Below are positions 34,950 to 52,136 of a stretch of 58,818 nt of DNA, piece by piece. A program made the translations under genes and the position numbers. The stretch comes from a virus. Under the pieces are notes generated by a model. That model was given only the letters and a program-made list of their open reading frames with translations, was not told where the DNA came from and ran no database searches. Position 1 is the stretch's first letter; each line of letters starts with the position of its first letter. The stretch lies in IMG/VR virus record IMGVR_UViG_3300045988_124363; one strand, 5' to 3'.

Positions 34950-34964
34950 ACAGGAGGGAGCAAC

Positions 34965-35568: not shown

Positions 35569-35582
35569 TACCGAATACAGCA

Positions 35583-37345: not shown

Positions 37346-37476
37346 TGCTGGGCCTTATCTTTCGGAACGTATTTTGCCAAAATCTGCATGACCTTTTCAC
37401 GATCTTCTACGCTGGCCGCTTGATATGCAGCAAGCATCGTTTGAAGCTCCTGAATGAATTCTTCCTGCGAAACCAT
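37342..37476 (-). CDS. 44-aa hypothetical protein, translationally coupled to the integrase
   Basis: MVSQEEFIQELQTMLAAYQAASVEDREKVMQILAKYVPKDKAQQ. Its stop codon overlaps the integrase ATG (ATGA). Confidence 0.4.
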   Translation of the reverse strand: MVSQEEFIQELQTMLAAYQAASVEDREKVMQILAKYVPKDKAQQ

Positions 37477-37493
37477 AGCACACCTCTTATATT

Positions 37494-37895: not shown

Positions 37896-37907
37896 AATAT
37901 AAAACAC

Positions 37908-38040
37908 CTCACAAATTTACTCACAAATGAGAGCAAAAGCTGTTGACTCACTCACAAATGAGAGCTATAATAACAAATGTAAACCGACGAAAGCTCACAA
38001 AGTCGTTTACAAATGTAAGTATACCCTAAATATAGCATAG
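37908..38040. promoter_or_regulatory. lysis-lysogeny switch region: rightward promoter plus multiple operators
   Basis: TTGACT (37943..37948), 17-nt spacer, TATAAT (37966..37971). Operator actcacaaatgagagc at 37919..37934 and 37950..37965, with partial sites at 37908..37919 and 37993..38002. TTACAAATGTAA-type palindromes at 37970..37983 and 38006..38019. Confidence 0.7.
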
Positions 38041-38077
38041 CTCACCAAAAAAAGCAAAGGAGGTCAAGAATTAAAAT

Positions 38078-38299
38078 ATGAAGCTCGAACTGCATCTGGA
38101 CTGGAAGCGCACGGTCAAGACCATTATGACCATGAGAGGTCTGTCCAACAGCGATCTGGCGCAGGCTGCCGGTACTACCGACGCAACCATGCGGCAGGTC
38201 ATCAACAAATCGGTCAAGGGAGCCGTGATGAACAAAGTCAGCGAGTATCTTGGTATCACCAATGCCGAAGTTCATCACGTCGTGATCGAGGTCGAATAA
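38078..38299 (+). CDS. Cro-like HTH protein
   Basis: MRGLSNSDLAQAAGTTDATMRQVIN HTH; first gene of the rightward operon. Confidence 0.6.
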   Translation: MKLELHLDWKRTVKTIMTMRGLSNSDLAQAAGTTDATMRQVINKSVKGAVMNKVSEYLGITNAEVHHVVIEVE

Positions 38300-38336
38300 C
38301 CTTACATCTATTTTACAGCATTGGAGCCGAGAAGAT

Positions 38337-38837
38337 ATGCAGAATGAGTGCAGCAAAGGCAATGACAACTATTACTTTTTGTGTCGGAAAAAAGCATCGG
38401 AACACAACGACGCACTGAGCAGCCGCCTTGGAGCGGCATCCCGCCTGAATATTTCGGAATCCGCTTTGCGCAATTATGAAGTCGATACCGCGAACGTGCC
38501 CCAGGACATCGTCTGTGCGATGGCTGGCCTGTATGGTATGCCCGAAATGGAAACTCATTATTGCAAGACCGACTGTCCCATCGGGAAGCACGTCGGCGGT
38601 GCCCTTACCTGCGAAGTAAAGAGCATCGAAAGCGTGGCAGTCAACTTCCTGACCCACACCAACGGCAACGACATTCAGGCCATGCAGAACGCTGTCCTGA
38701 AAATCGCCCTCGACGGAAAAGTCAGCGAGGAGGAGCGTGACCAGCTCCGGCAGATCGTCAAATTCATCGAAAACATCGCGCGGGACGCCAGCGATATGCG
38801 GCTGATGCTCGAAAGGAAGTGCCAGAATGGAGCTTAA
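38337..38837 (+). CDS. XRE-family HTH regulator with a C-terminal domain
   Basis: LSSRLGAASRLNISESALRNYE HTH; 166 aa. Confidence 0.6.
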   Translation: MQNECSKGNDNYYFLCRKKASEHNDALSSRLGAASRLNISESALRNYEVDTANVPQDIVCAMAGLYGMPEMETHYCKTDCPIGKHVGGALTCEVKSIESVAVNFLTHTNGNDIQAMQNAVLKIALDGKVSEEERDQLRQIVKFIENIARDASDMRLMLERKCQNGA

Positions 38838-38979
38838 AGACATTTTGCGCGACATCCTGAAGCGCGATTATGGCATCGAAACGGACGCCCAGCTCATGCA
38901 GGCTATTCGTGAGCAGAAGCCGCTTGACATCGGGATTTTCGTTTCGCAGCCTGCAAGCCAACAGGCGAAAGCCTGCTGA
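38827..38979 (+). CDS. 50-aa hypothetical protein
   Basis: MELKDILRDILKRDYGIETDAQLMQAIREQKPLDIGIFVSQPASQQAKAC; too short for the supplied ORF track. Confidence 0.4.
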   Translation: MELKDILRDILKRDYGIETDAQLMQAIREQKPLDIGIFVSQPASQQAKAC

Positions 38980-39001
38980 ATCATCCACAGGAGGTATGAA
39001 C

Positions 39002-39949
39002 ATGGAAGAACTCACCGTCCAGATTCAGAAACCCATCATCCCGCCGCTGGTCTGGAACAAAGAAGCCGTTGAAGCCTACGTCAACGAAGCTCTGGAAAAG
39101 TACGTCGGCATTGTCTACACCGATGACATGATCGACGACGCAAAGAAAGACCGGGCGAAGCTCAACGCGCTGGAAAAGCAGCTGGCAAAGGCTTTCACGG
39201 CCACGAAAGACGTTTACCTTGGCCCGCTGACCGAACTGGAAACCGTAACCAAAGACCTGCGGCAGAAAATCAAGAAAACGTCCGGGGAAATCGACACACA
39301 GGTCAAATCTTACGAGGACGCACTGAAGCAGGACAAAAAGAACGACCTCTATCGTGTTTACACCACCGCCGCTGGCGCGCTGGCCGTTCTCGTACCGTTC
39401 GAGAAAATTTTCAATGAACGCTGGCTTAACAAGACCTACGCTTTCAGCACCGCAGAAAAGGAGCTGAAAACCATCATCGAGGAAAAGCGGCTGGAGCTGG
39501 ACGATCTGGCCGACGACTGCGAACCCGGCGAGGAATACGAAGCCGTAAAGCGGGCCTACCTCAAGAACCTGTCCATGAAAGAAGCCCGCGCCGAGCGCAA
39601 GGCGTTCCGCGACTTCAAAGCCCAGCAGGAGCAGGCAGCGGCAGCAAAGGCCGCCGAGGAAGCCGCCCGCCGCGCCGCGCCTGTTATCCAGCGTCCCACC
39701 GCCGAAGACCTTGAAATCAAAGCGCAGGCCGCCCAGAACGTCGAGATGTCAAAGATCATCGACGACAACGGCCGTCTGGACTTTTCCTCTCTCCGCGCCG
39801 CGCAGCCTGAACAGGCCGCTTCGGTCGAAGAACCTGCGCAGCAGCCCAAAATCTTTGAGCGCACTCTTCACGTCCGCTATACCGCCGAGCAGGGCCGTGA
39901 GCTGATCGAAGCTCTGAACAAAATCGGCCTTGAATACAAACTGATCTAA
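39002..39949 (+). CDS. DUF1351-like phage protein (RecT-associated)
   Basis: AGGAGG SD; coiled-coil 315-aa protein directly upstream of recT, as in many Firmicute phages. Confidence 0.5.
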   Translation: MEELTVQIQKPIIPPLVWNKEAVEAYVNEALEKYVGIVYTDDMIDDAKKDRAKLNALEKQLAKAFTATKDVYLGPLTELETVTKDLRQKIKKTSGEIDTQVKSYEDALKQDKKNDLYRVYTTAAGALAVLVPFEKIFNERWLNKTYAFSTAEKELKTIIEEKRLELDDLADDCEPGEEYEAVKRAYLKNLSMKEARAERKAFRDFKAQQEQAAAAKAAEEAARRAAPVIQRPTAEDLEIKAQAAQNVEMSKIIDDNGRLDFSSLRAAQPEQAASVEEPAQQPKIFERTLHVRYTAEQGRELIEALNKIGLEYKLI

Positions 39950-39964
39950 CAGGAGGTCAATATT

Positions 39965-40867
39965 ATGGGATTTTCCGTACCGGGGCAGCCCCAAAACACC
40001 GCGCCGCGTGGCGCACCCGTCGCAACTTCCCGCGCCGGTGGCTATGCAGCTCCCACCACCCGCCAGCAGGAAGCCGCCCTTGCAACCGTCGCACCGTCTG
40101 AGCCTGTCAAGTATGAAGCAGGCGGCGAAGAAATCGAGCTTTCGCCGGAACTTATCAAGACGTATCTGGTCAACGGCGACGCCGACAAGGTCACAGATCA
40201 GGAAGTCATGATGTACTTGAATCTGTGCCGCTTCAACCACCTGAATCCTTGGCTGAAAGAGGTCTATCTTATCAAGTACGGCGATAAGCCCGCAACGATG
40301 GTTCCAGGCAAGGAATCTTTTATGAAGCGGGCCGAGCGCAACCAGCACTTTGCAGGCATTGAAAGCGGCATCGTCGTCCACAACTCCAACAATAACCAAA
40401 TCGAGTACCGCGAGGGCAGCGCGGTCTATGAAGATTTTGGTGAAAAGCTGATCGGCGGCTGGGCCAAAGTCTACCGCACCGACCGTCAGTTCCCGAACTA
40501 CTCTGAATGTGCCCTCTCTGAATACCTTGGCAAAAAGGGCAACGGCGAGGTCAACCAGCAGTGGAGCACCAAACCTGCGACCATGATTCGCAAAGTTGCA
40601 ATGGTGCAAGCTCTCCGCGAAGCGTTCCCGACCGACCTTGGCGCGATGTATGCAGCAGAGGAGCAGGGCGTAGAGGAGCCGGACAGCCTGCCGCAGGGCA
40701 GCCAGACCGAGCCGACCTTTAACCGCCGCCCGCGCAAGCCGAAAGCCCCGGCGCGGCCTGACGTCGAAATCATCGACGCCACCCCGAACGATGAAGCCGA
40801 CCCGCTGGCAGCTCTCGAAAACGCTGGCCCCGAAAACAGCGATATGCAGGAAGGACAGGAAAAATGA
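39965..40867 (+). CDS. recT: RecT-family single-strand annealing recombinase
   Basis: Motifs LNPWLKEVYLIKYGDKPATMVPG and QQWSTKPATMIRKVAMVQALREAFP. Confidence 0.85.
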   Translation: MGFSVPGQPQNTAPRGAPVATSRAGGYAAPTTRQQEAALATVAPSEPVKYEAGGEEIELSPELIKTYLVNGDADKVTDQEVMMYLNLCRFNHLNPWLKEVYLIKYGDKPATMVPGKESFMKRAERNQHFAGIESGIVVHNSNNNQIEYREGSAVYEDFGEKLIGGWAKVYRTDRQFPNYSECALSEYLGKKGNGEVNQQWSTKPATMIRKVAMVQALREAFPTDLGAMYAAEEQGVEEPDSLPQGSQTEPTFNRRPRKPKAPARPDVEIIDATPNDEADPLAALENAGPENSDMQEGQEK

Positions 40868-41424
40868 TCTGCACAAGTAAAACAGGCGTCCTTGTTTATG
40901 GTGAGCTTGCCAAAGAGCCGGAATTTAAGCGGCTCCAGAATGGCAGCTACCTGATGAAGCTGAACATCCGCTATGACAGCGAAAAGAACGAAGCAGGGAA
41001 GTGGCTTGGAAAATTCATTGACGTCAATATCTGGCGTGTGGACGTTGACCTCTGGGATGATATGCTCCACAAGGGCGATAATGTCATTGCCAGCGGCAAA
41101 AAGGTCGAGCCGCACGAATACAACGGCAAAACCTATTACCAGCTCGACGCCGAGGACGTCACACCATCCGGCAAAACACAACTGCGCTGGCTGCAACAGG
41201 CCATCAACGCCGTTTGGAGCGCAGGCCCCACACCGGCAGAGCAGCCACCGGCAGCCACTGAACCGCCCCAGCCGGAACCGCAGCAGCAGGCCGCCCCACC
41301 CGCGTCCCGCGCTACTGCACCTGCACAACCCGCCCAGCAGCCCGAAAGCACTCAGCCTGCCCGCCAGTACACCGAGGACGAAATGCGAATCATCGAGGGC
41401 GACGACGATGATCTGCCGTTCTAA
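40864..41424 (+). CDS. ssb: single-stranded DNA-binding protein
   Basis: OB-fold-like N-terminus, Pro/Gln/Ala-rich linker and an acidic tail ending DDDDLPF. Confidence 0.8.
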   Translation: MICTSKTGVLVYGELAKEPEFKRLQNGSYLMKLNIRYDSEKNEAGKWLGKFIDVNIWRVDVDLWDDMLHKGDNVIASGKKVEPHEYNGKTYYQLDAEDVTPSGKTQLRWLQQAINAVWSAGPTPAEQPPAATEPPQPEPQQQAAPPASRATAPAQPAQQPESTQPARQYTEDEMRIIEGDDDDLPF

Positions 41425-41436
41425 GGAGGGCGCACG

Positions 41437-42264
41437 ATGGCAACATACAGACAGATATACATATCCTTTTGGAGCGACACGAAAGTCTGTGATGACTTTT
41501 CGCCGGAGGACAAGTATTTCTACATCTACCTGCTGACCAACCCTCACACCAATATCTGCGGATGCTACGAGATCAGCTCCAGCCAGATGGCGCAGGAGCT
41601 TGGCTACAACGAAGAATCGGTCAAAAAGCTGCTGCGCCGCATGGAGCAGACGCATGATGTCATCCGCTACAACTGGCAGAAAAAAGAACTCCTGATTCTG
41701 AACTGGCACAAGTACAACTGGACGAAAAGCCCGAAAATGGTTTCAGCCGTCCGCGCCGTGGCCCAGTACATCAAGACCGACGAATACCGGGTCTACATCC
41801 TGTCCACGCTCGAACGCACCATCAACGGCCAGAAAGAACCCGCCCCGCAGCCTGCGGCGGCGGGCACTCTTTCCACGGCGGCCCCTGCACAGCCCGCCGC
41901 CATCACCGCACACCAGAAGACTGACGAGGAAGAAACCATGAGCCGCATGGTAGCATCCTACGAGCAGAACATCGGCCCAATCAAACGCGCCGTGTTCGAC
42001 GCTATGCGGATGTGGTGGCTGTCAAAGGGCGTCGAGCCTGACATGATCTGCGCCGCGATGGATGAAGCCGCTATGCAGAACGCTCCGAACTGGACATACG
42101 CCGAGGGCATCTTGCGCCGCTGTCTTTCCGCAGGTATCACCACGCTGGCCGGATTCCGGGCAGATCAAAAGCACTTCCAGAGCAAACGAAAAGGAGGTAC
42201 GCCCGCCGCGACCGCTGACCAGCAGGAAGAACCCAGCCTGTACGCGGCGTTTGGCATGAACTGA
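41437..42264 (+). CDS. replication initiation/organiser protein with a DnaD-like domain
   Basis: N-terminal phage replisome-organiser-like region. C-terminal YEQNIGPI.....D.M..W........D.I..A.DEA......NW.YAEGILRRC. Confidence 0.7.
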   Translation: MATYRQIYISFWSDTKVCDDFSPEDKYFYIYLLTNPHTNICGCYEISSSQMAQELGYNEESVKKLLRRMEQTHDVIRYNWQKKELLILNWHKYNWTKSPKMVSAVRAVAQYIKTDEYRVYILSTLERTINGQKEPAPQPAAAGTLSTAAPAQPAAITAHQKTDEEETMSRMVASYEQNIGPIKRAVFDAMRMWWLSKGVEPDMICAAMDEAAMQNAPNWTYAEGILRRCLSAGITTLAGFRADQKHFQSKRKGGTPAATADQQEEPSLYAAFGMN

Positions 42265-42265
42265 T

Positions 42266-43114
42266 ATGAGCATCGAATCCGCATTGAATCAGGTCGTGCA
42301 GCAGGCGCAGGCCGCCCAGAGCGTCGCCCCTGACGACTACAAAGACCCCAAAACCGGGCTTTTGATGTGCGGCAAGTGCCATACCCCGAAGCAGTACCAT
42401 TTCCACAATGCCGCCTTTGACTTGGGCCTTGTCCCGGTGATGTGTGACTGCCAGCGGGCAGCCCATGACGCCGAACAGCAGAAACGCCGGGAAGCCGAGC
42501 GGGAAATACTCACAGCGCGGCGCAAAGCGGCCTGTTTTGGAGCCAACGACCGAAAAGCGGCATACACCTTTGACACCGACGACCGTGCCAATACAGCGGC
42601 CACCAATGCGGCACAGGGCTATGTCCGGCACTTCACCGAAATGCGGGAAAAGGGACGCGGCCTGTTTTTCATCGGGCCGTGCGGCACTGGCAAAACCTTT
42701 TTGGCCTGCTGCATCGCAAACGCCCTGCTAGATAAAGGCTACACCGTCAAGGTGTCTACCTTTGCCGACATCGCCAACCGCCTGCAAGGGACGTTCGACA
42801 AAGAATCCATCTACGACGACCTGAACGCCGTAGATCTTCTGATACTGGACGACCTCAACGCCGAGCGCGATACCTCTTTCATGCAGGAAATCGTGTTCAC
42901 GGTCATTGACAACCGCTGCGCCGCTCAAAAACCCCTGATCGTCACGTCCAACATCACGCCGTCCGAATTTGCAAACCCCGACACCATCGAACGCCGCCGC
43001 GTTTTCAGCCGCCTGCAGGAGGTCTGCATCCCGGTTGAAGTCAACGGCAAAGACCGCCGCCGTGAAGCCATGATGAAAAGTTGCCGCGACGATCTCGCAT
43101 TCCTCAACACATAA
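42266..43114 (+). CDS. DnaC/IstB-like helicase loader ATPase
   Basis: Walker A GPCGTGKT and Walker B LLILDDL. Confidence 0.8.
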   Translation: MSIESALNQVVQQAQAAQSVAPDDYKDPKTGLLMCGKCHTPKQYHFHNAAFDLGLVPVMCDCQRAAHDAEQQKRREAEREILTARRKAACFGANDRKAAYTFDTDDRANTAATNAAQGYVRHFTEMREKGRGLFFIGPCGTGKTFLACCIANALLDKGYTVKVSTFADIANRLQGTFDKESIYDDLNAVDLLILDDLNAERDTSFMQEIVFTVIDNRCAAQKPLIVTSNITPSEFANPDTIERRRVFSRLQEVCIPVEVNGKDRRREAMMKSCRDDLAFLNT

Positions 43115-43126
43115 AGGAGAATCCGT

Positions 43127-43312
43127 ATGAAGTACGATATTGAACTCCGCATATTCAGCAAGGAAGATCGCCGCACCATCGCGGCCATCCTGTCAGACAA
43201 CGGCTATGACGTCGGCCAGCATACCAAAAAGGCCGGCAAAACTGGCCGCTCGACCGTCTATTGCATCCATGCAACAGACATGAAAAAGGAGGATACCCAG
43301 AATGACATATAA
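43127..43312 (+). CDS. hypothetical protein
   Basis: 61-aa ORF with an AAGGAG SD. Confidence 0.45.
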   Translation: MKYDIELRIFSKEDRRTIAAILSDNGYDVGQHTKKAGKTGRSTVYCIHATDMKKEDTQNDI

Positions 43313-43604
43313 GCACACCGAAACCACCACCGACGCCTACCAGCTCACCAAAAACTACGCCAGCGACGCCCCCAAATGGGTGCGTGACCGCATCGGCACC
43401 CGGCTTTTTGAGAATACCACCATCCGGGACGGCGCAATCCGCTTTGATGGCTTGACGTCCATCATCCAGAACCGCAAGCTGCGCGAACGCATGACTGCCC
43501 GCCCCGGCGACTACCTTGTGCGCCTGCCCGACGGTAACGTCGTCGTCTACACGAAGCGCAACTTTGAAGCCCTCTACACCCCGGCAGAGGGGCAGCAGGC
43601 ATGA
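43302..43604 (+). CDS. hypothetical protein
   Basis: 100-aa ORF with an AGGAGG SD. Confidence 0.5.
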   Translation: MTYKHTETTTDAYQLTKNYASDAPKWVRDRIGTRLFENTTIRDGAIRFDGLTSIIQNRKLRERMTARPGDYLVRLPDGNVVVYTKRNFEALYTPAEGQQA

Positions 43605-44020
43605 TTATTGCTTTCGCTGTCCCCGGAGAGCCGAAAGGCAAGGCCCGCCCACGCACCGTCCAAATCGCGGGCCATGCCAGCACCTACACCCCAAAGGAAA
43701 CGGTCATGTATGAAAATCTGGTGCGGCTCTATTACCAGCAGGCCGCCAGAGGATTGCGGCTTTCCGGCCCCATACAGGCCGAAATCGTCAGCTATTCATC
43801 CGTCCCGAAATCCACCTCAAAAAAGAAAAGAGCCTTGATGCTTGACATCAAGACCCTTTGCCAGAAGAAGCCAGACGTTGATAATCTGGCGAAAATCGTT
43901 TTGGACTCTCTGAATAAAATCGCCTACGACGACGATGCGCAGGTCTGCCGCCTGCTGGTCGAAAAGCGATACGGGGGGACCCCTCAAGTGCTTGTCAGAT
44001 TGAGCGAGCTGGAACCATGA
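43601..44020 (+). CDS. rusA: RusA-family Holliday junction resolvase
   Basis: GEPKGKARPR ... KPDVDNLAKIVLDSLNKIAYDDDAQV. Confidence 0.85.
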   Translation: MIIAFAVPGEPKGKARPRTVQIAGHASTYTPKETVMYENLVRLYYQQAARGLRLSGPIQAEIVSYSSVPKSTSKKKRALMLDIKTLCQKKPDVDNLAKIVLDSLNKIAYDDDAQVCRLLVEKRYGGTPQVLVRLSELEP

Positions 44021-44166
44021 AGATTTTATACTACATCTTAGCATTTGCCATGGGCTATTTTTTCCGCAAATACGGGCAAGCCCACAAAAAGCACGACGAG
44101 CTGGACAGCCATGCAGAAGAGCTTATCCGGCGCGAACAGGAAGCCGAAACTTTCGGCGATCTTTGA
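44017..44166 (+). CDS. 49-aa small membrane protein
   Basis: MKILYYILAFAMGYFFRKYG...; ATGA overlap with rusA; too short for the ORF track. Confidence 0.4.
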   Translation: MKILYYILAFAMGYFFRKYGQAHKKHDELDSHAEELIRREQEAETFGDL

Positions 44167-44179
44167 AAGGAGCATCACA

Positions 44180-44668
44180 ATGGCCATCACCAACTATGAA
44201 GAAATGTCCATCACGTCCCCGGCCTTTAACACAGTCCGCGAAGCCTTTGACGTGGCCTTGCAGCGGCTTTTGAAGAAGATGGAGAAGTCCAAAATGGACG
44301 AGGGCCAGATTGCCCTGAACATCACCGTCACCAACGAGGACGTCTTTACCGATGACGATGCAGAGCTGGGCGACACCGACGGCCCGGAAAAAAAGCCTGT
44401 CCTGAAGTACAAGATCACGACCACCGTGCCCATAAAGGACACCGACGACGGCAAGGCCGATACCGGCATGGCCCTTGTCTGGGACAAAGACCTTGGCCGC
44501 TATGTGCTGGTCTATATGCAGACCAACCAGACCTCTATGTACGACAACCCGCCCGCAGGCGCCCCCCAGCAGACCACCATGAACCCAGCGCAGCAGATCG
44601 GGCAGGGGAGCGGCGCACTGATCGACATCCGCGCTTTCAGGCCGGACGACGACGGCGACGACGAATAA
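44180..44668 (+). CDS. hypothetical acidic protein
   Basis: 162 aa with an AAAGGAG SD. Confidence 0.55.
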   Translation: MAITNYEEMSITSPAFNTVREAFDVALQRLLKKMEKSKMDEGQIALNITVTNEDVFTDDDAELGDTDGPEKKPVLKYKITTTVPIKDTDDGKADTGMALVWDKDLGRYVLVYMQTNQTSMYDNPPAGAPQQTTMNPAQQIGQGSGALIDIRAFRPDDDGDDE

Positions 44669-44779
44669 CCCCCATCGGGCAGCTTTTGGGCATAAAAAGA
44701 GCCGCCCACCCTCAAACCTCAAATGGCCTAAGAATGAACGGCGCCGGACAACCGTTATTATACCATTTGAGCGGAGGAA

Positions 44780-45250
44780 ATGCAAGTGCAGCAGTCAGCG
44801 AAAGATCGGCTTTCTGAATACCTGCCGATGGCAATGGAAAATAAAAATCGGCTTGCCCGCTTGAATGATATGCGGGACGCCGCCGGGGGCCTGACAGGTA
44901 TACCCGAAAGCGACGGCAGCGCACACACGGCCGGGAACAGTCATAAGATGGAAGCCGCGGTCGAACGCTACCTCGAATACGAAAAGAAGATTCAGCCGCT
45001 TTTGAAAGCCAACGCCGACAAGATGGCCAAGCTGGAAAGCATGGTCGATTCCATCCCCGACGGCTTACAGCGCGAAGTCCTGCGCCTGCGGTACATGGAC
45101 GCCGAAAGTGAGGACACCTGCCGGCCGAAAAAATGGAACGCCGTTGCCCTCACGCTTTACGGCAGCGACGACCGAAAATACATCGAAGCTGTCCACCGCA
45201 TCCACAAAAAAGCCATTTTGACCCTAGAAAACACAGAAAATGTACCATAA
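44780..45250 (+). CDS. late-gene transcriptional activator (sigma-70 region-4-like; RinA/ArpU/DUF1492-type)
   Basis: C-terminal LQREVLRLRYMD......W..VA..LYGSDD.KYIEAVHRIHKKAILTLEN. Last gene before the packaging and morphogenesis operon. The start may be GTG at 44786. Confidence 0.6.
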   Translation: MQVQQSAKDRLSEYLPMAMENKNRLARLNDMRDAAGGLTGIPESDGSAHTAGNSHKMEAAVERYLEYEKKIQPLLKANADKMAKLESMVDSIPDGLQREVLRLRYMDAESEDTCRPKKWNAVALTLYGSDDRKYIEAVHRIHKKAILTLENTENVP

Positions 45251-45277
45251 ATGAGTGTAAATGAGTATAAATGAGGT
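45248..45277 (+). repeat. three tandem 10-bp repeats (TAAATGAGTN), probably an activator binding array
   Basis: taaatgagtg taaatgagta taaatgaggt. The array starts at the stop codon of the activator gene and lies just upstream of promoter-like elements. Confidence 0.75.
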
Positions 45278-45280
45278 AGA

Positions 45281-45310
45281 TTGCACATACAAATCTGTGA
45301 TACTATCACA
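45281..45310 (+). promoter_or_regulatory. candidate late promoter with a 15-bp perfect palindrome
   Basis: TTGCAC at 45281..45286; extended -10-like TGtGATACT at 45296..45304; palindrome TGTGATA-C-TATCACA at 45296..45310. Confidence 0.45.
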
Positions 45311-45392
45311 ATGCGAAAAGCGAAAGGGAGCTTCCGACACTCCCAGACGCCGGATGCAAAGAGAATAGCGCACTCATTCTTTTCTCTGCCCT

Positions 45393-45430
45393 ACCACCTG
45401 ACCGCAGCAGCGGCCGGGTGGTTCTTTTTT
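45393..45430 (+). terminator. leader terminator/attenuator upstream of the late operon
   Basis: accacc..ccgc-agca-gcgg..ggtggt stem followed by TTCTTTTTT, about 60 nt before the first late ORF. Confidence 0.5.
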
Positions 45431-45492
45431 GCGCAGAAATCGGGATGGGCAAGCGCAAAAGGGCAAAATAAACCTGAAAGGAGGAAAGAACT

Positions 45493-45828
45493 GTGTACTA
45501 CATCATTTGCAAACTGGACGTTCCCGGCTTTCATAACTGGCCGGACGCCCCGGCGGGCCTTGAATACCTGCGCAGCATCCACCGCCATGTGTTCAATATC
45601 ACCGCCAGGATTCCCGTTACCCACGACAACCGCGATCTGGAAATCATCCAGACACAGAACCGCATCCACCATTTTCTGTCCGACCGTTTCGGCGACGAAA
45701 ACGGCCACATGATGCTTGGCTCTATGTCCTGCGAAATGCTTGCGAAGCTGATTGCTGATACTTTCGGCTGCACCGAAGTCACCGTGCAGGAAGATGGGCA
45801 GGGAGGTGGCGTCTATGTTAGGGAGTAA
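45493..45828 (+). CDS. QueD-like (6-pyruvoyl-tetrahydropterin synthase fold) protein
   Basis: GTG start with an AAGGAGG SD. The pattern FHNWPDAP....YLRSIHRHVFNI and the C-terminal VQEDG.GGGVY parallel QueD (F.AAHRLP....HGH.F.V ... V.ET...G..Y). Confidence 0.45.
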   Translation: MYYIICKLDVPGFHNWPDAPAGLEYLRSIHRHVFNITARIPVTHDNRDLEIIQTQNRIHHFLSDRFGDENGHMMLGSMSCEMLAKLIADTFGCTEVTVQEDGQGGGVYVRE

Positions 45829-46708
45829 CGTCAAAGTTCATTTTGCCGGAAGCGATGGCAGCAAGGAAAACTTTTGCGCCCTTGTTGCGGCAGATACCCG
45901 CTACCGCCTGTACAGCTGCTATAACTACATCGTCAACAAGAAGCCCGACGATGATTTCAGGCTGCCGGAAGATGATATTATTCTGGAACAGCAGAAGCAG
46001 CAGAAACACGTCATTCAGGATTCGGGCCTGTTCACCCTGATGTTTGGTGCCAGCAAGGGCCAGCAGCAGACCATCTCGACCCTGACCGAATGGCAGGACA
46101 AGCTCATTGCCTTTGTCAAGCAGAACCACATCACCGCATCCTGCGTCGAGATCGACTGTCAGAAAGTCCTTGGCCCGGAAGAAGCGTGGTATTTCCGTCA
46201 GCGCATGAGAGATCTTCTGCCCGAAAACAAGCAAATCAACGTCTTTCATTTTGAGGACGGCTTGAAAGGCCTTGACCGCCTGATCGAATTTGCCGATTAC
46301 ATCGCCGTCAGCGTCCCGGAATGGCGCATTGTAAAGCCCGCAACCCACAAGCAGGATATACGCTACATCACCCACTACATCAAAAACAAGAAGCCGGAGA
46401 TCGACATCCATTTGCTTGGCTGCACCGACTTCAAAATCATCCGCGAGAACAATTTCTGCACATCGGCCGATAGCACGAGCTGGCTGTCCGGCGTGAAGTA
46501 CGGATATTTCAACGATGGTATCAAAAAAGAACACATCCGCAATTTTAAGCGCAGCCTGTACAACGAGCGCGAAGCACAGGTAAAGGCTATGATGCTGGCC
46601 CGTGGCATCGAGCCGACAGGCAAAAAGCTGATATATACCACAAACGCCAGCCTTTGCGCGACCATCTGCAAAGACCTGTATGCCCGCACCTGCGGCCCGC
46701 AGGACTGA
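45815..46708 (+). CDS. dpdA: DpdA-like DNA-guanine transglycosylase (TGT superfamily)
   Basis: DSGLFT (compare TGT DSGGFQ) and HLLGCTD....TSADSTSW motifs. Adjacent to the QueD-like gene and the preQ0/preQ1 transporter gene. Confidence 0.55.
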   Translation: MLGSNVKVHFAGSDGSKENFCALVAADTRYRLYSCYNYIVNKKPDDDFRLPEDDIILEQQKQQKHVIQDSGLFTLMFGASKGQQQTISTLTEWQDKLIAFVKQNHITASCVEIDCQKVLGPEEAWYFRQRMRDLLPENKQINVFHFEDGLKGLDRLIEFADYIAVSVPEWRIVKPATHKQDIRYITHYIKNKKPEIDIHLLGCTDFKIIRENNFCTSADSTSWLSGVKYGYFNDGIKKEHIRNFKRSLYNEREAQVKAMMLARGIEPTGKKLIYTTNASLCATICKDLYARTCGPQD

Positions 46709-46726
46709 ACCAAAAGGAGAAGCACA

Positions 46727-47437
46727 ATGAAAAAAAACGACAAGAACTATTCCATCCTGCTGACCCTGTTCGTGATCTCCATCGTCATTGCGAACGTCGT
46801 CGGCAGTCGCACCATTACCACCGGCATCCACCTTGGCCCCATCACCCTGTCCACATCCGGCGGCGCGATCACCTACGCTGTCACGTTCCTGTGTACCGAC
46901 ATCGTCGGCGAAATCTGGGGCCGCAAGAAAGCGCAGAGCATGGTTTTCTTTGGCTTTGTAGGCCAGATTTTCGCAACCATCGCAATTATCCTTACAGGCT
47001 GGTGCAGAGCAGTAGACCCTGTTATTGATGGCGCATACCAGACGCTTTTAGGCCAGAACTGGGTTTTCGTCATCGGCAGCCTGTGCGCCTACTACGCATC
47101 CCAGAGCTGGGACGTCTTTGTGTTCCACAAAATCCGCGATGCCTACATCCGCAAGCACGGCGACGTCAAGGGCGGTCGCTGGATTTGGAACAACGGCTCC
47201 ACCTGCACAAGCCAGATCATCGACACCGCCATTTACGCCTTTATCAGTTTTGGTCTGGGCCTTGGCTGGGCATTTACCCCGGAGGGCCGCATGAACCTTA
47301 TCGGCATGATGATCGGTCAGTATCTGCTTAAAGCCTGCCTTGCTCTAGCAGATACGCCGTTCTTCTATTTCTTCACCCGCCGGGAGGTAACAGAACATGG
47401 CAATGAATATCAGGAGAATGCAGCTTGCCGATCTTAA
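46727..47437 (+). CDS. yhhQ: queuosine-precursor (preQ0/preQ1) transporter, YhhQ/DUF165 family
   Basis: Multi-TM protein with GAITYAVTFLCTDIVGEIWG, SQSWDVFVFHKIR and STCTSQIIDTAIYAFISF motifs, as in YhhQ. Confidence 0.8.
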   Translation: MKKNDKNYSILLTLFVISIVIANVVGSRTITTGIHLGPITLSTSGGAITYAVTFLCTDIVGEIWGRKKAQSMVFFGFVGQIFATIAIILTGWCRAVDPVIDGAYQTLLGQNWVFVIGSLCAYYASQSWDVFVFHKIRDAYIRKHGDVKGGRWIWNNGSTCTSQIIDTAIYAFISFGLGLGWAFTPEGRMNLIGMMIGQYLLKACLALADTPFFYFFTRREVTEHGNEYQENAACRS

Positions 47438-48014
47438 CCCGGCAGACTACAACCCCCGCAAAGACTTACAGCCGGACGACCCCGCATACCTGAAGATCAA
47501 ACAGAGCCTTGAAACCTTTGGCATGGTCGAGCCTATCATCTGGAACGAAAGAACCGGGCACATCGTGGGCGGCCACCAGAGAATCAAGGCCCTGCGCGAT
47601 ATGGGCGAAGCCGAAACCGACGTTGTCGTCATAAACGAACCCCTCAAAGAGGAAAAGAAGCTGAACGTCATCCTCAACCGCGCCAAAGGCCGCTGGGATA
47701 ATGAAAAGCTGGCCCCCTTGATGCAGGAGCTTTCCGAACGCGGCGACGTTTCCCTCACAGGCTTTGAGGACTACGAGCTGCAAGGACTGATCGACCAGTA
47801 CCAAAACCGTCTGGCCGACATCCTCGATTATTCACCGCCTGAACCGCAGCCGGACAACGAGCAGGAAGAAGAAACCCCTGCCGACGCCACATTCTCAATG
47901 ATCTTTTCCATCCCGGCACAGTACAAGGACGCCGTGGACGCATACCTCGAACAGGACGACGCCCGCGAAACCCTCGCCGCTGCCATCATGGAAAAAATCA
48001 GAGGGGAGGACTAA
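47397..48014 (+). CDS. ParB-like nuclease-domain (ParB/Srx) protein, paralogue 1
   Basis: LNPADYNPRKDL....Y..IK.SLETFGMVEPIIWN.RTGHIVGGHQRIKAL. Confidence 0.75.
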   Translation: MAMNIRRMQLADLNPADYNPRKDLQPDDPAYLKIKQSLETFGMVEPIIWNERTGHIVGGHQRIKALRDMGEAETDVVVINEPLKEEKKLNVILNRAKGRWDNEKLAPLMQELSERGDVSLTGFEDYELQGLIDQYQNRLADILDYSPPEPQPDNEQEEETPADATFSMIFSIPAQYKDAVDAYLEQDDARETLAAAIMEKIRGED

Positions 48015-48017
48015 CGC

Positions 48018-48596
48018 ATGGAATTTGAAGTAAAGCGCATCGCGGACATGAACCGCGCCGCCTATAACCCCCGCGTCGATCTCCAACCCGAAGACGAAGA
48101 ATATCAGGCCATCGAGCGCAGCTTGAAGCGTCACGGTCTGGTACAGCCCGTCGTTTGGAACTGTCGTACCAATACCGTTGTTTCCGGCCACCAGCGTTTG
48201 ACCGTCCTTGAAGCGCAGGGCGAAACCGAAGTCACCGTTTCCGTTGTCGATCTGGACGACATCCAGGAAAAAGAGCTGAACGTCGCCCTGAACAAAATCA
48301 CCGGCGAATGGGACGACGATAAACTTTCCGTCATCCTCAACGAGCTGGGCGAAGAAGCGGCTGACACTGGTTTCACACTCCCGGAAATCGACGTTTTGAG
48401 GGATGAACTCAAATCCTACTTTGACGACGTGACCGCACCCGACGAAGAAGAACCCACCGAGGAGCCGGAAGAATCTTTCCTGCTTAGCCTGACCTTTGAT
48501 GCAGCCGACGAAAAGCCTCTGAAAGCCTACATCAAGGAGCACAGCGAAGATGCTGTCGTGAGGATCATCGTCGATACCGTCACCGCGTCGGCATGA
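48018..48596 (+). CDS. ParB-like nuclease-domain protein, paralogue 2
   Basis: MNRAAYNPRVDL....Y.AIERSLKRHGLVQPVVWN.RTNTVVSGHQRLTVL; clearly paralogous to 47397..48014. Confidence 0.75.
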   Translation: MEFEVKRIADMNRAAYNPRVDLQPEDEEYQAIERSLKRHGLVQPVVWNCRTNTVVSGHQRLTVLEAQGETEVTVSVVDLDDIQEKELNVALNKITGEWDDDKLSVILNELGEEAADTGFTLPEIDVLRDELKSYFDDVTAPDEEEPTEEPEESFLLSLTFDAADEKPLKAYIKEHSEDAVVRIIVDTVTASA

Positions 48597-48637
48597 CCGG
48601 GCTGTTTCTCCCTGCATGACCCTGTAAGGAGAATGCC

Positions 48638-49141
48638 ATGGAAAAACAGGTCAAAACAAAGGTCTGGGAGCAGCAGCCGAAAGAGAGCGACCCGGCCTAT
48701 GCTGCGTTCTCCATCTACCGGGACATGGGCAAAAACCGCACCGTCGCGGCGGTGGTAAGGGAGTGCGGCAAGAATCGGAGCTTAATCGACCGCTGGCACA
48801 AGGGCCACAACTGGGCCGCCCGCTGTCGGGCCTACGATAACAGCATCGACGAAGAAGCCCGCAAAAAGGCCGCCGTAGAAGCGGCCAACATCCGCAAAAC
48901 GCACCTGCAAATAGCTGCCCAGCTCCAACTAAAGGCACTGAACGCGCTGAACCTGTTGGCCCCGGAGGATATGACGCCCCGCGACATCAAGGAAATGCTG
49001 AAGCTGGCCCTTGAAGTCGAAAACAACCTCGTACTGGAAAAGGCCCCGCAGGAGGACGCCACAGCCGCGCCCACCCTGATGCAGACCATCGAAGAAGCCT
49101 ATCAGCGCAGAATGGACGGTGAAACCCCACATGACGAGTGA
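48638..49141 (+). CDS. putative terminase small subunit
   Basis: 167-aa HTH-like protein immediately upstream of, and overlapping, the large terminase gene. Confidence 0.5.
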   Translation: MEKQVKTKVWEQQPKESDPAYAAFSIYRDMGKNRTVAAVVRECGKNRSLIDRWHKGHNWAARCRAYDNSIDEEARKKAAVEAANIRKTHLQIAAQLQLKALNALNLLAPEDMTPRDIKEMLKLALEVENNLVLEKAPQEDATAAPTLMQTIEEAYQRRMDGETPHDE

Positions 49142-50540
49142 CGCTGTTCTGTTCTACGCTGACCACCCGGTCGAGTTTGTCGAGGACGTCATAGGAGCAA
49201 AGCCGGACACGGAGCAGGCCAAAATCCTGCGAAGTCTGGCCGCCAACCCCATGACCGCCGTTCGGTCTGGACACGGCATCGGCAAGAGCGCGGTGCAGGC
49301 GTGGGCGATTATCTGGTTTATCTGCACCCGGCCCTATCCGAAAATCCCCTGCACAGCCCCCACGCAGCACCAGCTGTATGACATCCTCTGGGCCGAGGTG
49401 TCAAAATGGCTGCGCAGTAACCCCGCATTGCAGCGGGAAATCATCTGGACGCAGGAGCGCGTCTACATGGCCGGGGCAAAAGAAGAATGGTTTGCCGTTG
49501 CCCGAACGTCAAACACCCCGGACGCCCTGCAAGGCTTCCACTCCGAAAGCCTGCTGTTCATCATCGACGAAGCATCCGGCGTGGACGACAAGGTCTTTGA
49601 GCCTGTATTGGGCGCACTGTCCACAGAGGGAGCGCGGCTGCTGATGTGCGGAAACCCCACACAGCTGCAAGGCTTTTTCTATGATGCGTTCCATAAGAAC
49701 CGGGCCGAATATCACACCATCCACGTTGACGACCGAAACAGCCCCCGCGTGTCGCAGGAGTATATAGACCGCATCCGCACCATGTACGGCGAGGATTCCG
49801 ACGTTTTCCGCGTCCGCGTCGCCGGGGATTTTCCGAAGTCTGAAAAGGACGTCTTTATCCCGCTGTCGATGGTCGAGAAGTCCATCAACACCGACTGGAA
49901 AGAGCCGGAAAAGCCGCTATCCGTGCATATCGGCTGCGATGTCGCCCGATTCGGCGATGATAAAACCGTCATCGGCTACAAGATCGACGAGAAGATCTAT
50001 TTCCACCAGAAGATACAGGGACAGGACACCGTGCGAACCGCGCATGAAATAGCCCTGCTGGGATGCAGGCTTGTTGACAAATACCACCTCGAAACCGCTA
50101 TCCCGGTCAAAATCGACGACGGCGGCGTCGGCGGTGGCGTGACCGACAACCTGCGCCAGATAAAACGCTCTGACCCTGACCGTTTCTGGTGGCTCTCCAT
50201 CGTCCCGGTGAAATTCGGCCAGATCATCAAACACAAATACTATCACGACACGACCACCTACATGATGGCCGTTGTTAAAAAGCTACTCCAAACCATTGAC
50301 GACGACGGCAACGAAAAGCCTGTCGAACTTATCCTGCCCGACGATGCAGACTTGGCTGCGCAGCTCTCCACCCGCAAATACGGCATCACGGAGAAAAGCA
50401 AGGTCAAAATCGAAAGCAAAAAGGACGTCAAGGCCAGAGGTCAGCCGTCCCCGGATGAAGCTGACTGCGTCCTGCTTTTGTGCTTGCCCGTCAAGCCCTC
50501 AAAGGCCCACCCGCCAAAGGGCACAGGAAGAAAGGAGTAA
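49131..50540 (+). CDS. terL: terminase large subunit
   Basis: Walker A-like GHGIGKS, Walker B LLFIIDEASG and a C-terminal nuclease domain; about 470 aa. Confidence 0.85.
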   Translation: MTSDAVLFYADHPVEFVEDVIGAKPDTEQAKILRSLAANPMTAVRSGHGIGKSAVQAWAIIWFICTRPYPKIPCTAPTQHQLYDILWAEVSKWLRSNPALQREIIWTQERVYMAGAKEEWFAVARTSNTPDALQGFHSESLLFIIDEASGVDDKVFEPVLGALSTEGARLLMCGNPTQLQGFFYDAFHKNRAEYHTIHVDDRNSPRVSQEYIDRIRTMYGEDSDVFRVRVAGDFPKSEKDVFIPLSMVEKSINTDWKEPEKPLSVHIGCDVARFGDDKTVIGYKIDEKIYFHQKIQGQDTVRTAHEIALLGCRLVDKYHLETAIPVKIDDGGVGGGVTDNLRQIKRSDPDRFWWLSIVPVKFGQIIKHKYYHDTTTYMMAVVKKLLQTIDDDGNEKPVELILPDDADLAAQLSTRKYGITEKSKVKIESKKDVKARGQPSPDEADCVLLLCLPVKPSKAHPPKGTGRKE

Positions 50541-50546: not shown

Positions 50547-52136
50547 TTGTCAACGAAAAAGAACCCCCGGCCCATGCAGGCCCGCATCATCAAGGGCAAG
50601 AACTACACGCCACCCTTGCAGCCCATCAAAAAGGCCGACACCACGACGCAGGTCACGGAGCAGGAAGCCTTTAACGCGGGCGACTGGATTGAGCCGCCCT
50701 ATGAGCTGGCTGGCTTGCATGATCTTGTCCGGGAATCGACCATCCTGCCGCAGTGCATCCGCGCCTACAAAGACAACATTGCAGGCTTTGGCATCGGCGT
50801 CCGCTATGCTGAGGACGTCAAAGAGAACGATGAAGCCAATGTGGAATATAATCGCATGGCCCAGATCATCGAGCTGCTGAACACCGAGCAGGACACAAAG
50901 GAAGTCTTTGAAGACCTCATTGAAGCCCGCGAAACCTACGGCGTGGCCTACCTCGAAGTTATCCGCAATCTGGATGGGGAAGTGCAGCAGATCGAATTTC
51001 TGCATGATACGCCATCCATCCGAATGACCGTCCCACTGGAGCCGCGCATCGAAACCACCTATTTCAACCACGGCGAAGCTGTGCAGCGCAAGAAGAAGTT
51101 TCGCAAGTTCCGGCAGCAAGTCGGCGGCAAGACCGTCTATTTCAAAGAGTTCGGCGACCCGCGCCGCATGGACTGGCGCGATGGCCGTTACCTCGAAGAT
51201 GGCGAAGCCCTCGACCTTTCCTATGAAGCGAACGAGATCCTGGACTTCTCTATCGGCATCCAGCCCTACGGCGAAGTGCGCTGGATAGGGCAGGTCTTGG
51301 GCGTCGATGGTAGCCGCCGCGCCGAACGGCTCAATAATAACTACTTCATCAACGGCCGGCATACGCCCCTGATGATTATGATTCAGGGTGGCACACTGAC
51401 CGACGAGAGCTATGACAAGCTCACGAAGTACATGGACGACATCAAGGGCGAAGCAGGGCAACACGCCTTTATTGTCCTTGAAACCGAATCCACCGACAGC
51501 AAGACCGACTTTGACGAAACCGAGAAGCCGAAAATTGAGGTCAAGGATTTGGCGTCCATCCTGCAAAAAGATGAACTGTTCCAGTCCTACATGGACAACA
51601 ACCGCAAAAAGGTACAGTCGTCTTTCCTGCTGCCTGACCTGTACACCGGGTACACGACCGACTTCAACCGTGCCACCGCGCAGACCGCGCAGGAGGTCAC
51701 GGAGAAGCAGGTTTTCCAGCCGGAGCGCAAGAGCCTTGCATGGGCCATCAATAACCGGCTCCTGAACGCCTACGGCTTTAAGTATGTCGAAGCCTATTTC
51801 TTGGAGCCGAACATCTCCAACCCGGACGACATCACGAAGCTGCTGACCGCCGCAACAGCCGCAGGCGGCGTCACCCCCAACAAGGCGAAAGAGATCCTCT
51901 ACAAGTATCTTGGCGAGGATTCCGACGACTACGACGAAGAGTGGGGCAACGTCCCGCTGTCCATCACCAACAGCCCCAGCAGCGGCGGCTTTGACCTTGG
52001 CGCACTCACGATGGCCCTTGATGGCAAAATCCAGAAAGCGGCCAGCCGCCCGGAGGATGCGCAGGTCTACGCCGTGATGAAAGAAGTTCGGAAGCTGCTG
52101 GTCGATCTCAAACAGCAGCAGGAGGGCGAACAGTGA
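50547..52136 (+). CDS. portal protein (PBSX-type)
   Basis: 529 aa directly after terL. TTG start with an AAAGGAG SD (alternative ATG at 50574). Confidence 0.8.
   Translation: MSTKKNPRPMQARIIKGKNYTPPLQPIKKADTTTQVTEQEAFNAGDWIEPPYELAGLHDLVRESTILPQCIRAYKDNIAGFGIGVRYAEDVKENDEANVEYNRMAQIIELLNTEQDTKEVFEDLIEARETYGVAYLEVIRNLDGEVQQIEFLHDTPSIRMTVPLEPRIETTYFNHGEAVQRKKKFRKFRQQVGGKTVYFKEFGDPRRMDWRDGRYLEDGEALDLSYEANEILDFSIGIQPYGEVRWIGQVLGVDGSRRAERLNNNYFINGRHTPLMIMIQGGTLTDESYDKLTKYMDDIKGEAGQHAFIVLETESTDSKTDFDETEKPKIEVKDLASILQKDELFQSYMDNNRKKVQSSFLLPDLYTGYTTDFNRATAQTAQEVTEKQVFQPERKSLAWAINNRLLNAYGFKYVEAYFLEPNISNPDDITKLLTAATAAGGVTPNKAKEILYKYLGEDSDDYDEEWGNVPLSITNSPSSGGFDLGALTMALDGKIQKAASRPEDAQVYAVMKEVRKLLVDLKQQQEGEQ

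Follow-up and report, generated by a model that had tools for sequence, protein, structure and literature searches.

A candidate salvage-type cassette for 7-deazaguanine DNA modification, with ParB-like neighbours, in a temperate gut myophage

DNA modifications of the 7-deazaguanine type impede restriction enzymes and, according to reports, confer protection from CRISPR-Cas9 in vitro; most work on them has dealt with lytic phages that infect Proteobacteria or marine Bacteroidota. The present study concerns a cassette of five genes in the IMG/VR virus record IMGVR_UViG_3300045988_124363, a stretch of 58,818 nucleotides (nt), hereafter the window, that represents the almost complete genome of a temperate myophage, with genes nearly all on the + strand that encode a tail sheath, baseplate, a reverse transcriptase of the diversity-generating retroelement (DGR) type, a serine recombinase, RecT, SSB, and RusA. 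Five co-oriented and nearly abutting open reading frames (ORFs) fill positions 45493-48596, between a phrog_36 transcription regulator (44780-45250) and the gene for the terminase small subunit (TerS), and the successive intergenic spacings from the first of the five to terS are -14, +18, -41, +3, and +41 nt. The original prediction for this region described a QueD-like protein, a DpdA-like transglycosylase, and a YhhQ-type transporter as a module for 7-deazaguanine modification, followed by two ParB-like proteins that might belong to the same machinery; our analysis agreed with the coordinates, the gene order, and the assignment of the first three genes to such a module.

The five proteins

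The second gene encodes a protein of 297 amino acids (aa), the length of most of its homologues, that contains 'IQDSGLFTLMFG' and 'FCTSADSTSW'. The motifs DSGLFT and SADSTSW, from which a DpdA-like member of the tRNA-guanine transglycosylase (TGT) superfamily had been predicted, are present, and fold and homology agree with that assignment. The ORF matched phrog_887, 'queuine tRNA-ribosyltransferase', at 7e-21, a group that also holds gp021 of Bacillus phage BCD7, which is listed as DpdA in Suppl. Data 1 of Hutinet 2019 (PMC6884629), adjoins folE, queC, queE, and queD, and carries a 500-aa extension; the family profile aligned with the N-terminal 245 residues of gp021 at a probability of 99.5% (hhalign, E 3.6e-22). 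The AlphaFold 2 (AF2) model (predicted local distance difference test score, pLDDT, 90.2; predicted template modelling score, pTM, 0.87) was matched by Foldseek to Cap10 (9ntn), TGT (1q2r and 6ygp; query-normalised template modelling score, TMq, 0.54-0.62), and DpdA (7ui4) in the PDB, with E from 1e-4 to 1.5e-3, and to phage queuine tRNA-ribosyltransferases and the DpdA3 of phage phiST in BFVD. The top match in the PDB was the TGT-like Cap10 of a cyclic oligonucleotide-based antiphage signalling system (CBASS; 9ntn, Cap10-CdnD; E 9.5e-5), slightly ahead of the tRNA TGTs and DpdA, and to judge by this model the short TGT-fold proteins of defence and counter-defence may be structurally nearer to each other than to tRNA TGT.

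Residues D69-x3-F73, D114, H145, and D219 of the DpdA-like protein were invariant or at least 90% conserved in alignments of 32 and 54 sequences, and hhalign paired them with DSGAYT, VELD, HEYDG, and GDSTTW of the BCD7 DpdA. The catalytic set of the bacterial DpdA (bDpdA) of S. Montevideo consists of Asp95, Asp130, and Asp256, plus His181 and the stacking Phe99 (PMC10164549), and by motif and spacing D69/F73, D114, H145, and D219 would correspond to Asp95/Phe99, Asp130, His181, and Asp256. The putative catalytic aspartates (D69, D114, D219), whose loss the original prediction had named as counter-evidence, are conserved on alignment, together with F73 and H145. Pfam and NCBIfam gave no match for the ORF, and no member of its family matched the Pfam TGT model; PF01702 has no match in the accepted DpdAs BCD7 gp021 and phiST DpdA3 either, so the missing Pfam match carries no weight. 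Searches of PDB sequences with the ORF and with profiles of 32 or 54 homologues returned nothing relevant; the links to known proteins came only from structure comparison, PHROGs, and hhalign with BCD7 DpdA. Membership of the DpdA3 group was rejected because the family profile aligned with phiST DpdA3 at a probability of 2% (hhalign). The family, which is large and unannotated, comprised 1443 proteins in a word-indexed search and 828 representatives at 50% identity in an exhaustive search, and the 90%-identity cluster of the DpdA-like protein held 414 member sequences. At the related loci L041, L043, L072, L140, L143, and L145 two ORFs stand in place of a single DpdA reading frame, which points to pseudogenes or to assembly frameshifts.

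The first gene encodes a 111-aa protein whose stretch 'YLRSIHRHVF' (L26-x3-H30-R31-H32-x-F34) carries the signature LxxxHRHxF that sets DpdL apart from QueD with its CxxxHGH (Cui/Hutinet et al. NAR 2023, PMC10516641), and L26, H30, R31, H32, and F34 are invariant across 14 homologues. Its identity to the founding DpdL, CGPG_00067 of phiST, is 36% (BLASTP, E 5e-20); tblastn found phiST at 3e-11 (on CGPG_00067) and the DpdL of ACP17 at 4e-6, and phrog_17812 matched the ORF at 1.4e-18 and phiST DpdL at 3.9e-69. The best Foldseek PDB matches of its AF2 model (pLDDT 94.9) were all E. coli QueD (4ntk, 4ntm, 3qna; TM 0.66-0.69, E 2e-5), and the Pfam PTPS model matched neither this ORF nor phiST DpdL. 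The earlier label 'QueD-like' is borne out as to fold and fails as to identity, given the DpdL signature and the replacement of the catalytic Cys by Leu; sequence comparison indicates a DpdL homologue of QueD fold, not a QueD. For DpdL, a role as decarboxylase of 7-carboxy-7-deazaguanine (CDG) has been proposed, in the pathway that places 2'-deoxy-7-deazaguanine (dDG; nucleoside mass 267 Da) in DNA (PMC10516641). For a protein of DpdL type a processing step is expected before base insertion, and dDG would be a likelier product than dPreQ0 or dPreQ1. In Chryseobacterium phage MA9V-3, DpdL forms the C-terminal domain of a 293-aa protein (XQU63047.1, L004:5452-6333) behind an HNH/endonuclease VII-like domain, with matches to phrog_3322 (1e-21) and phrog_17812 (8e-18).

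The third gene product belongs unambiguously to the YhhQ type that had been predicted: Pfam Vut_1 matched at 3e-41 (141.8 bits, cut-off 27.2), and NCBIfam TIGR00697, 'queuosine precursor transporter', scored 111.1 bits (cut-off 50.95). As regards the host, a 208-kb contig of a Faecalibacterium metagenome-assembled genome (MAG) carries a cassette gene in a 100% identical copy. The F. prausnitzii strains shown in a table of prototrophies have a 0 in the last of its nine columns (PMC6593275), which from the ordering used in that paper would be the column for queuosine (Q), and F. prausnitzii uses a preQ1-III riboswitch, a class that according to a review governs queT (PMC11625349). A host genus that cannot make queuosine precursors would fit a salvage reading of the cassette. 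The predicted absence of FolE, QueC, and QueE was borne out: Pfam gave no match to GTP_cyclohydroI, PTPS, Radical_SAM/QueE, or QueC among the 71 other window ORFs, and phage FolE, QueD, QueE, and QueC used as phmmer queries found nothing in the six-frame ORFs of the window. No preQ1 riboswitch was found in the window at Rfam gathering thresholds, a search of 43500-49300 for promoters and terminators yielded no + strand signal exceeding that of shuffled sequence, and megablast of the cassette region against INPHARED returned no match.

The fourth and fifth genes encode the two tandem paralogous proteins that had been predicted downstream as carrying ParB/Srx domains. These proteins, ParB1 and ParB2, are 42% identical over 142 aa (E 4e-37) and match phrog_620 at 7e-41 and 5e-38, respectively. 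Both score below the Pfam ParB_N cut-off of 26.3 bits (ParB1 23.6 bits, 5.4e-5; ParB2 22.4 bits); the N-terminal domain of the PADLOC methyltransferase (MTase) model MTase_II (PDLC03229) matches ParB1 at 3.3e-34 and ParB2 at 3.3e-30, and phrog_498, a DNA MTase N-terminus, fits both proteins as well as phrog_620 does (ParB1 at 7e-40; all matches to the two groups between 1e-37 and 1e-41). The putative nucleotide-binding motif G59-H60-x-R62 is kept in 63-65 of 65 module-adjacent ParB homologues, and the C-terminus is a short acidic tail without a family match. The PADLOC model for DpdB (PDLC02811) gave an E of 0.014 for ParB1 (12.2 bits over 30 residues) and no match for ParB2, and from this, together with a length about half that of DpdB, the ParB-like proteins are not DpdB orthologues. 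The suggestion that they are analogues of DpdB accordingly fails as strict homology but gains from their conserved adjacency to DpdA, not to TerS. A plasmid-partition ParB was rejected, as a serine integrase is present, no ParA was detected in the window, and the proteins have no Pfam match to a helix-turn-helix (HTH) domain. The coordinates of the five genes and of those that follow are given in Table 1.

Table 1. Genes of the cassette and the genes downstream of it in the window
Feature	Position	Strand	Remarks
DpdL-like T-fold protein, QueD paralogue (putative)	45493-45828	+	111 aa, GTG start
DpdA-family DNA guanine transglycosylase (putative), short clade, PHROG 887 type	45815-46708	+	297 aa, ATG start
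YhhQ/COG1738 queuosine-precursor transporter	46727-47437	+	236 aa
ParB-N protein 1 (putative ParB/Srx NTPase fold), acidic C-terminal tail	47397-48014	+	205 aa
ParB-N protein 2, paralogue of protein 1	48018-48596	+	192 aa
TerS	48638-49141		directly after ParB-N protein 2
TerL	49119-50540		after TerS
Portal	50547-52136		after TerL

Gene order at related loci

Neighbouring genes were scored with phmmer and hidden Markov models (HMMs) at 80 IMG/VR loci, whose DpdA proteins fell into 22 clusters at a threshold of at least 85% identity and spanned 43-100% identity to the window DpdA, and 36 further loci came from bacterial genomes of five phyla (Faecalibacterium, Oscillospiraceae, Veillonella, several Bacteroidota, Treponema, Thermoguttaceae, and Chlorobiota). 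In 17 of the 22 IMG/VR clusters, DpdL and DpdA are immediate neighbours. Supply genes are present throughout, as YhhQ only (15 clusters), QueD-QueE-FolE only (six), or both (one), with no cluster having neither, and QueC is found in 0 of the 22; the DpdA orthologue is linked to 7-deazaguanine synthesis genes, in the order DpdA then QueD-QueE-FolE, in seven. DpdL is kept in ten of the 15 YhhQ-only clusters and in every cluster with the de novo set, and several YhhQ-type clusters lack it altogether (L047, L069, L070/71, L085, L121, and L140). The de novo clusters end at QueE, that is, at CDG, and QueC is missing wherever DpdL is present. The bacterial genome loci have the same core architecture, many of them with QueD-QueE-FolE after the DpdA orthologue, and QueC is confined to two of the 36, L137 and L138, both without DpdL. 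These two loci, from a Prevotella MAG (3692-8739) and from Cruoricaptor ignavus DSM 25479 (4340-8137), are arranged ParB(-ParB)-DpdA-QueC-(YhhQ)-QueD-QueE-FolE and are predicted from their gene content to make dPreQ0 rather than dDG.

YhhQ alternates with the CDG-making enzymes, and DpdL alternates with QueC, the enzyme that takes CDG to preQ0. The confinement of QueC to loci lacking DpdL makes the two look like alternative consumers of CDG, and in the light of both alternations the most fitting reading of the window is a dDG-type pathway in its salvage form; the near-exclusive alternation of YhhQ with QueD-QueE-FolE likewise supports the earlier proposal that the phage imports its precursor rather than making it. 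As regards the co-occurrence pattern of DpdL, the window has DpdA and no QueC, but YhhQ instead of FolE, QueD, and QueE, and sibling loci show the complete pattern, in which DpdA, FolE, QueD, and QueE are present without QueC.

In 20 of the 22 IMG/VR clusters the module has a ParB-like gene directly next to it, the other two having at most 532 nt of upstream sequence, and the same holds for 32 of the 36 genome loci, where three of the four exceptions lack flanks or are fragments. These counts follow a PHROG scan of apparent exceptions, in which a phrog_620 gene was found to abut the module in clusters L066/67 and L078-82, and a re-scan with the family HMM. Window-type loci carry two copies downstream of YhhQ, and elsewhere (Roos-type and de novo-type loci) one copy, sometimes a tandem pair, lies upstream of DpdL or DpdA; orf76 of phage Roos, directly upstream of DpdL, is ParB-like. 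Where the order is ParB-DpdL-DpdA-QueD-QueE-FolE-TerS, the ParB gene is five genes from TerS, yet next to DpdL/DpdA. One window-type locus, L011/L099 (IMGVR_UViG_3300045988_088646), has a single ParB ORF (5995-6582 of L099) instead of the pair; the match to window ParB1 is at 76% across residues 1-142, the best phmmer match comes from ParB2, and from these similarities the paralogues appear to have recombined with each other or to have undergone a deletion between them.

In INPHARED, 196 records contain the ParB-N domain and 4 the window's DpdA clade, so the domain is by no means tied to DpdA. Among its relatives without DpdA, some form the N-terminus of MTases and others stand free beside other enzymes, namely a Mom-family protein (L106), a glycosyltransferase (L109), and a weak radical-SAM match with a pyridoxal phosphate (PLP) enzyme (L102). 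The recurring partner is a DNA-modifying or candidate DNA-modifying enzyme, a pattern that argues for a role in modification rather than packaging. ParB-like genes that accompany terminases independently of dpdA, which had been named as evidence against a modification role, do occur, but they are fused to MTases or lie beside Mom or candidate modification genes. At L106 (IMGVR_UViG_3300046472_000096), which has no DpdA, a ParB-N gene (6001-6492; 47% identical to the N-domain of window ParB1) is followed by a Mom-family gene (6404-7192; PF25680, 9.6e-42) and then TerL. L102 (IMGVR_UViG_3300006217_001685, positions 879-2046, 2043-3062, and 3059-3904; L101 is similar) has two ParB genes in tandem, with 45% identity to the pair of the window, then a weak radical-SAM-like ORF and a PLP-dependent (PALP) enzyme, then TerS, with no DpdA in the available sequence, and this arrangement may be another modification cassette.

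No ParB gene was found at the phiST, MA9V-3, and BCD7 loci, and the ParB link seems specific to the window's DpdA clade. Between DpdL and DpdA3, phiST (CGPG_00066, L003:6290-6769) and MA9V-3 (L004:6333-6803) carry a phrog_19196 gene of about 157 aa, of which the phiST copy matches Pfam AAA_18 at 9.4e-7; each DpdA subfamily may have its own NTPase partner.

Comparison with described systems

The closest parallel in gene logic is phiST, which encodes FolE, QueD, QueE, DpdL, and DpdA3, lacks QueC, and has dDG in its DNA (PMC10516641). The window shares with it a DpdL with the same signature beside a DpdA-superfamily transglycosylase, the absence of QueC, and, through its sibling loci, the same FolE/QueD/QueE set. 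The two differ in the transglycosylase, which is of phrog_887 (BCD7 type) in the window and of phrog_20335 (DpdA3) in phiST; in the YhhQ importer that takes the place of FolE, QueD, and QueE; in the ParB-like neighbour of the window's clade, where phiST has a P-loop (AAA_18-like) gene; and in the phage itself, the window phage being temperate and infecting a gut Firmicute.

In bacteria, the DpdB ATPase is required for DpdA, as found in S. Montevideo (Gedara et al. NAR 2023, PMC10164549), and the window resembles this system in having a TGT-fold DNA transglycosylase beside a ParB-superfamily protein of putative NTPase fold. The supply routes are also split in a similar way: YhhQ is present in about 9% of bacterial dpd islands, and preQ0-synthesis genes co-localise in others (PMC11888242), as YhhQ and QueD-QueE-FolE do among the relatives of the window. 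The window ParB-like proteins have 192-205 aa, however, against about 370 aa for DpdB, with the motifs GGHQR/SGHQR rather than DGQQR/DGQHR, and an SspE-like helical C-domain, present in DpdB, is not detectable in them by sequence. The window DpdA has 297 aa, whereas the bDpdA chain of 7ui4 has 413 residues, and the window lacks DpdC and the DpdD-K restriction arm.

ParB-like proteins accompany other modifying enzymes of phages. The thymine dioxygenase 5mYOX176 requires a ParB-like activator, ParB176, on double-stranded DNA (dsDNA) (O'Toole et al. PNAS 2026, PMC13229309), and there too the gene of a small ParB-like phage protein adjoins that of an enzyme which modifies DNA after replication; the neighbouring enzyme in the window is a transglycosylase, not an Fe/2-oxoglutarate (2OG) dioxygenase, and the likeness drawn here is one of gene arrangement. 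ParBc proteins accompany phage CmoX clusters, and phage ParB-CTPase folds are often fused to N6_N4 MTases. Phage fusions of ParB-N to a DNA MTase (phrog_498, MTase_II PDLC03229; surveyed in PMC12704722) are the closest relatives of the window ParB-N, with 50-56% identity over about 130 aa and E down to 9e-39, and they too are encoded a few genes ahead of the terminase. The window ParB-N is instead free-standing and duplicated, lies beside DpdA, and has an acidic tail in place of the MTase domain.

DpdA encoded without preQ0 genes, as in the window, is known from phages with a singleton DpdA, for which use of host preQ0 or uptake was suggested, and some phages encode YhhQ (Hutinet 2019, PMC6884629). 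YhhQ was uncorrelated with any phage group in that survey (PMC6884629), whereas here it belongs to a constant operon-like unit together with DpdL and DpdA and alternates with QueD-QueE-FolE.

Proposed pathway, alternatives, and significance

From the gene identities, folds, conserved residues, neighbourhoods, and exclusion patterns described above we infer a transported compound, a DpdL reaction, a final base, and a role for the ParB-like proteins, and we propose that the cassette, which in this temperate myophage of Faecalibacterium lies between the early/replication genes and terS, would serve salvage-type 7-deazaguanine hypermodification of phage DNA. During lytic growth, YhhQ in the host membrane would import a free 7-deazaguanine precursor from the gut lumen, most likely CDG and alternatively preQ0 or preQ1, which a Q-auxotrophic host could not supply. 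DpdL, with its metal-binding His kept and its catalytic Cys lost, would decarboxylate CDG to 7-deazaguanine, and DpdA would exchange guanines of the replicated phage dsDNA for that base by a TGT-type double displacement, with D219 as the nucleophile, D69 as the general acid/base, D114 and H145 reading the base, and F73 stacking. The two ParB-like proteins would be partners that, in a nucleotide-dependent manner, load DpdA onto dsDNA or activate it there, analogous to DpdB and ParB176 and orthologous to neither, and the modified DNA would then be packaged and would resist restriction in the next host. We hold with some confidence that the cassette is a 7-deazaguanine DNA-modification module, and we consider its dependence on import probable; the composite explanation, comprising a salvage cassette, import, DpdL, DpdA, and ParB partners, is somewhat probable. 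Whether the ParB-like proteins are functional partners of DpdA is evenly balanced, and dDG as the product of DpdL acting on imported CDG is put forward tentatively.

Several points weigh against this proposal. The cassette and all of its relatives are known from genes alone, and we know of no YhhQ for which CDG transport has been shown; CDG as the cargo of the phage YhhQ is suggested solely by the alternation with QueD-QueE-FolE, and only the general family model fits this protein, with the E. coli-type PRK11212 scoring 31 bits against a cut-off of 252. The family profile of the transglycosylase gave no significant alignment with E. coli TGT (hhalign, probability 0.3%, DSGLF opposite DSGGF), so the residue mapping to TGT stays inferential, and the proposed correspondence with TGT and bDpdA draws on motifs and on the alignment with BCD7 DpdA. 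The decarboxylase function of DpdL is only proposed, even for its founding members, and dDG was not detected when dpdL and dpdA were co-expressed in E. coli (PMC10516641). Two phages with a lone DpdA have DNA that is unmodified (Orion) or modified only in trace (7-11) (Hutinet 2019, PMC6884629), and the DpdA of phage 9g is active in E. coli without any ParB partner. Adjacency of the ParB genes could be inherited synteny, as the loci are all related and ParB-N genes are often found just ahead of terS, and the genome locus L122, with 2.7 kb of upstream sequence and no ParB match, is the sole exception with an adequate flank.

The last of these points bear on an alternative that we regard as rather doubtful, in which DpdL, DpdA, and YhhQ modify DNA and the ParB pair is unrelated to them, serving packaging, pac-site/genome handling, or anti-defence in the pre-terminase slot. 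The excess of ParB-N over this DpdA clade in INPHARED records agrees with such independence, as do the usual position of ParB-N relatives a few genes upstream of the terminase, the tandem pair of L101/L102 upstream of TerS, the partner-free activity of 9g DpdA, and the absence of DpdB-level similarity. Against it, the ParB genes abut DpdL/DpdA on either side of the module at the frequencies given above, four to six genes separate them from TerS in Roos-type and de novo-type loci, and the common denominator of the DpdA-free relatives, whether fused to MTases or beside Mom, is DNA modification, not packaging. Direct insertion of the imported base as dPreQ0 or dPreQ1, with DpdL binding or buffering the pterin/purine-like base or modifying it in another manner and the product not being dDG, appears unlikely. 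The characterised E. coli YhhQ carries preQ0 and preQ1, the preQ1-III riboswitch suggests that the host lineage salvages preQ1, the activity of DpdL is so far a proposal, and the YhhQ-type clusters without DpdL indicate that DpdA plus YhhQ can evidently stand alone; but DpdL is retained in most YhhQ-only clusters and in all de novo ones, the latter stop at CDG and never have QueC alongside DpdL, and dDG is the base found in phiST, the sole analysed phage with this gene logic.

A cassette that is decaying or conditionally silent, yielding little or no modification, would recall Orion and 7-11, which both encode DpdA, and would agree with the split DpdA frames at related loci. We judge this improbable, as the window genes are intact, the 90%-identity DpdA cluster has several hundred members, the putative catalytic residues and those of the motifs do not vary among proteins that span 43-100% identity, and gene order is maintained across five bacterial phyla. 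An auxiliary metabolic module acting on RNA, by which queuosine-type tRNA modification of host or phage would be boosted or hijacked, is suggested by the TGT-like fold, with tRNA-guanine transglycosylases among the best PDB matches, and by the nature of YhhQ as a transporter for salvage of Q precursors; it is very improbable in view of the length of the DpdA-like protein (297 aa against 375 aa for E. coli TGT), the absence of a Pfam TGT match, the strong alignment with BCD7 DpdA, an invariant H145 that by motif comparison with bDpdA His181 matches the DpdA-type His, the linkage to ParB-like DNA proteins and to DpdL, which has been described only for the DNA dDG pathway, and the lack of QueA, QueG, and QueF.

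Every component of the cassette, as well as a DpdA without synthesis genes combined with possible uptake, already has described relatives. What appears to be new is this DpdA clade with its breadth among prophages, the stable DpdL-DpdA-YhhQ unit, which alternates with QueD-QueE-FolE, the mutual exclusion of DpdL and QueC beyond the DpdA3 phages, and the near-obligate ParB-like neighbour; the literature that we searched contained no paper linking ParB-like proteins to phage DpdA, or DpdL to YhhQ. On the proposed salvage pathway, the cassette would bring 7-deazaguanine chemistry to temperate phages whose host, Faecalibacterium, is a major commensal of the human gut, and to prophages across five phyla, and Faecalibacterium phage Roos (strain FM8; PMC11792537) offers a cultivable, mitomycin-inducible relative. 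The two alternations lend comparative support to the still unproven DpdL reaction and predict CDG as the specific substrate of a YhhQ subgroup. The ParB-DpdA linkage provides an independent case for ParB-fold proteins as accessory factors of DNA-modifying enzymes and hints at why some phage DpdAs manage without DpdB, which bacterial DpdA requires. Such modification would also bias sequencing and restriction-based analysis of gut viromes.

A bolder generalisation, which we advance as speculation and think somewhat unlikely to hold in full, is that the short DpdA clade in prophages of at least five phyla would be an obligate two-component enzyme with a small ParB-fold NTPase, that ParB-N modules would generally load MTase, Mom, 5mYOX, and DpdA onto dsDNA before packaging, and that the window phage would import microbiome-derived CDG through its own YhhQ for dDG DNA. 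If true, this would be the first CDG transporter and the first virus to scavenge a cross-fed micronutrient for hypermodification of its genome.

Two further features lie outside the cassette. One window ORF within 30881-44668 has a Pfam match to N6_N4_Mtase (9.9e-16), and motif IV, [DNS]PP[YFW], is absent from every window ORF; an MTase that is divergent or inactive, and distinct from the free ParB-N genes, may be encoded here. A DUF3800-VIII RNA (RF03075) was matched at 17182-17246 (+) with 41.8 bits, against an Rfam gathering score of 40.2, in the gap between the tail/baseplate block and the next block of genes.

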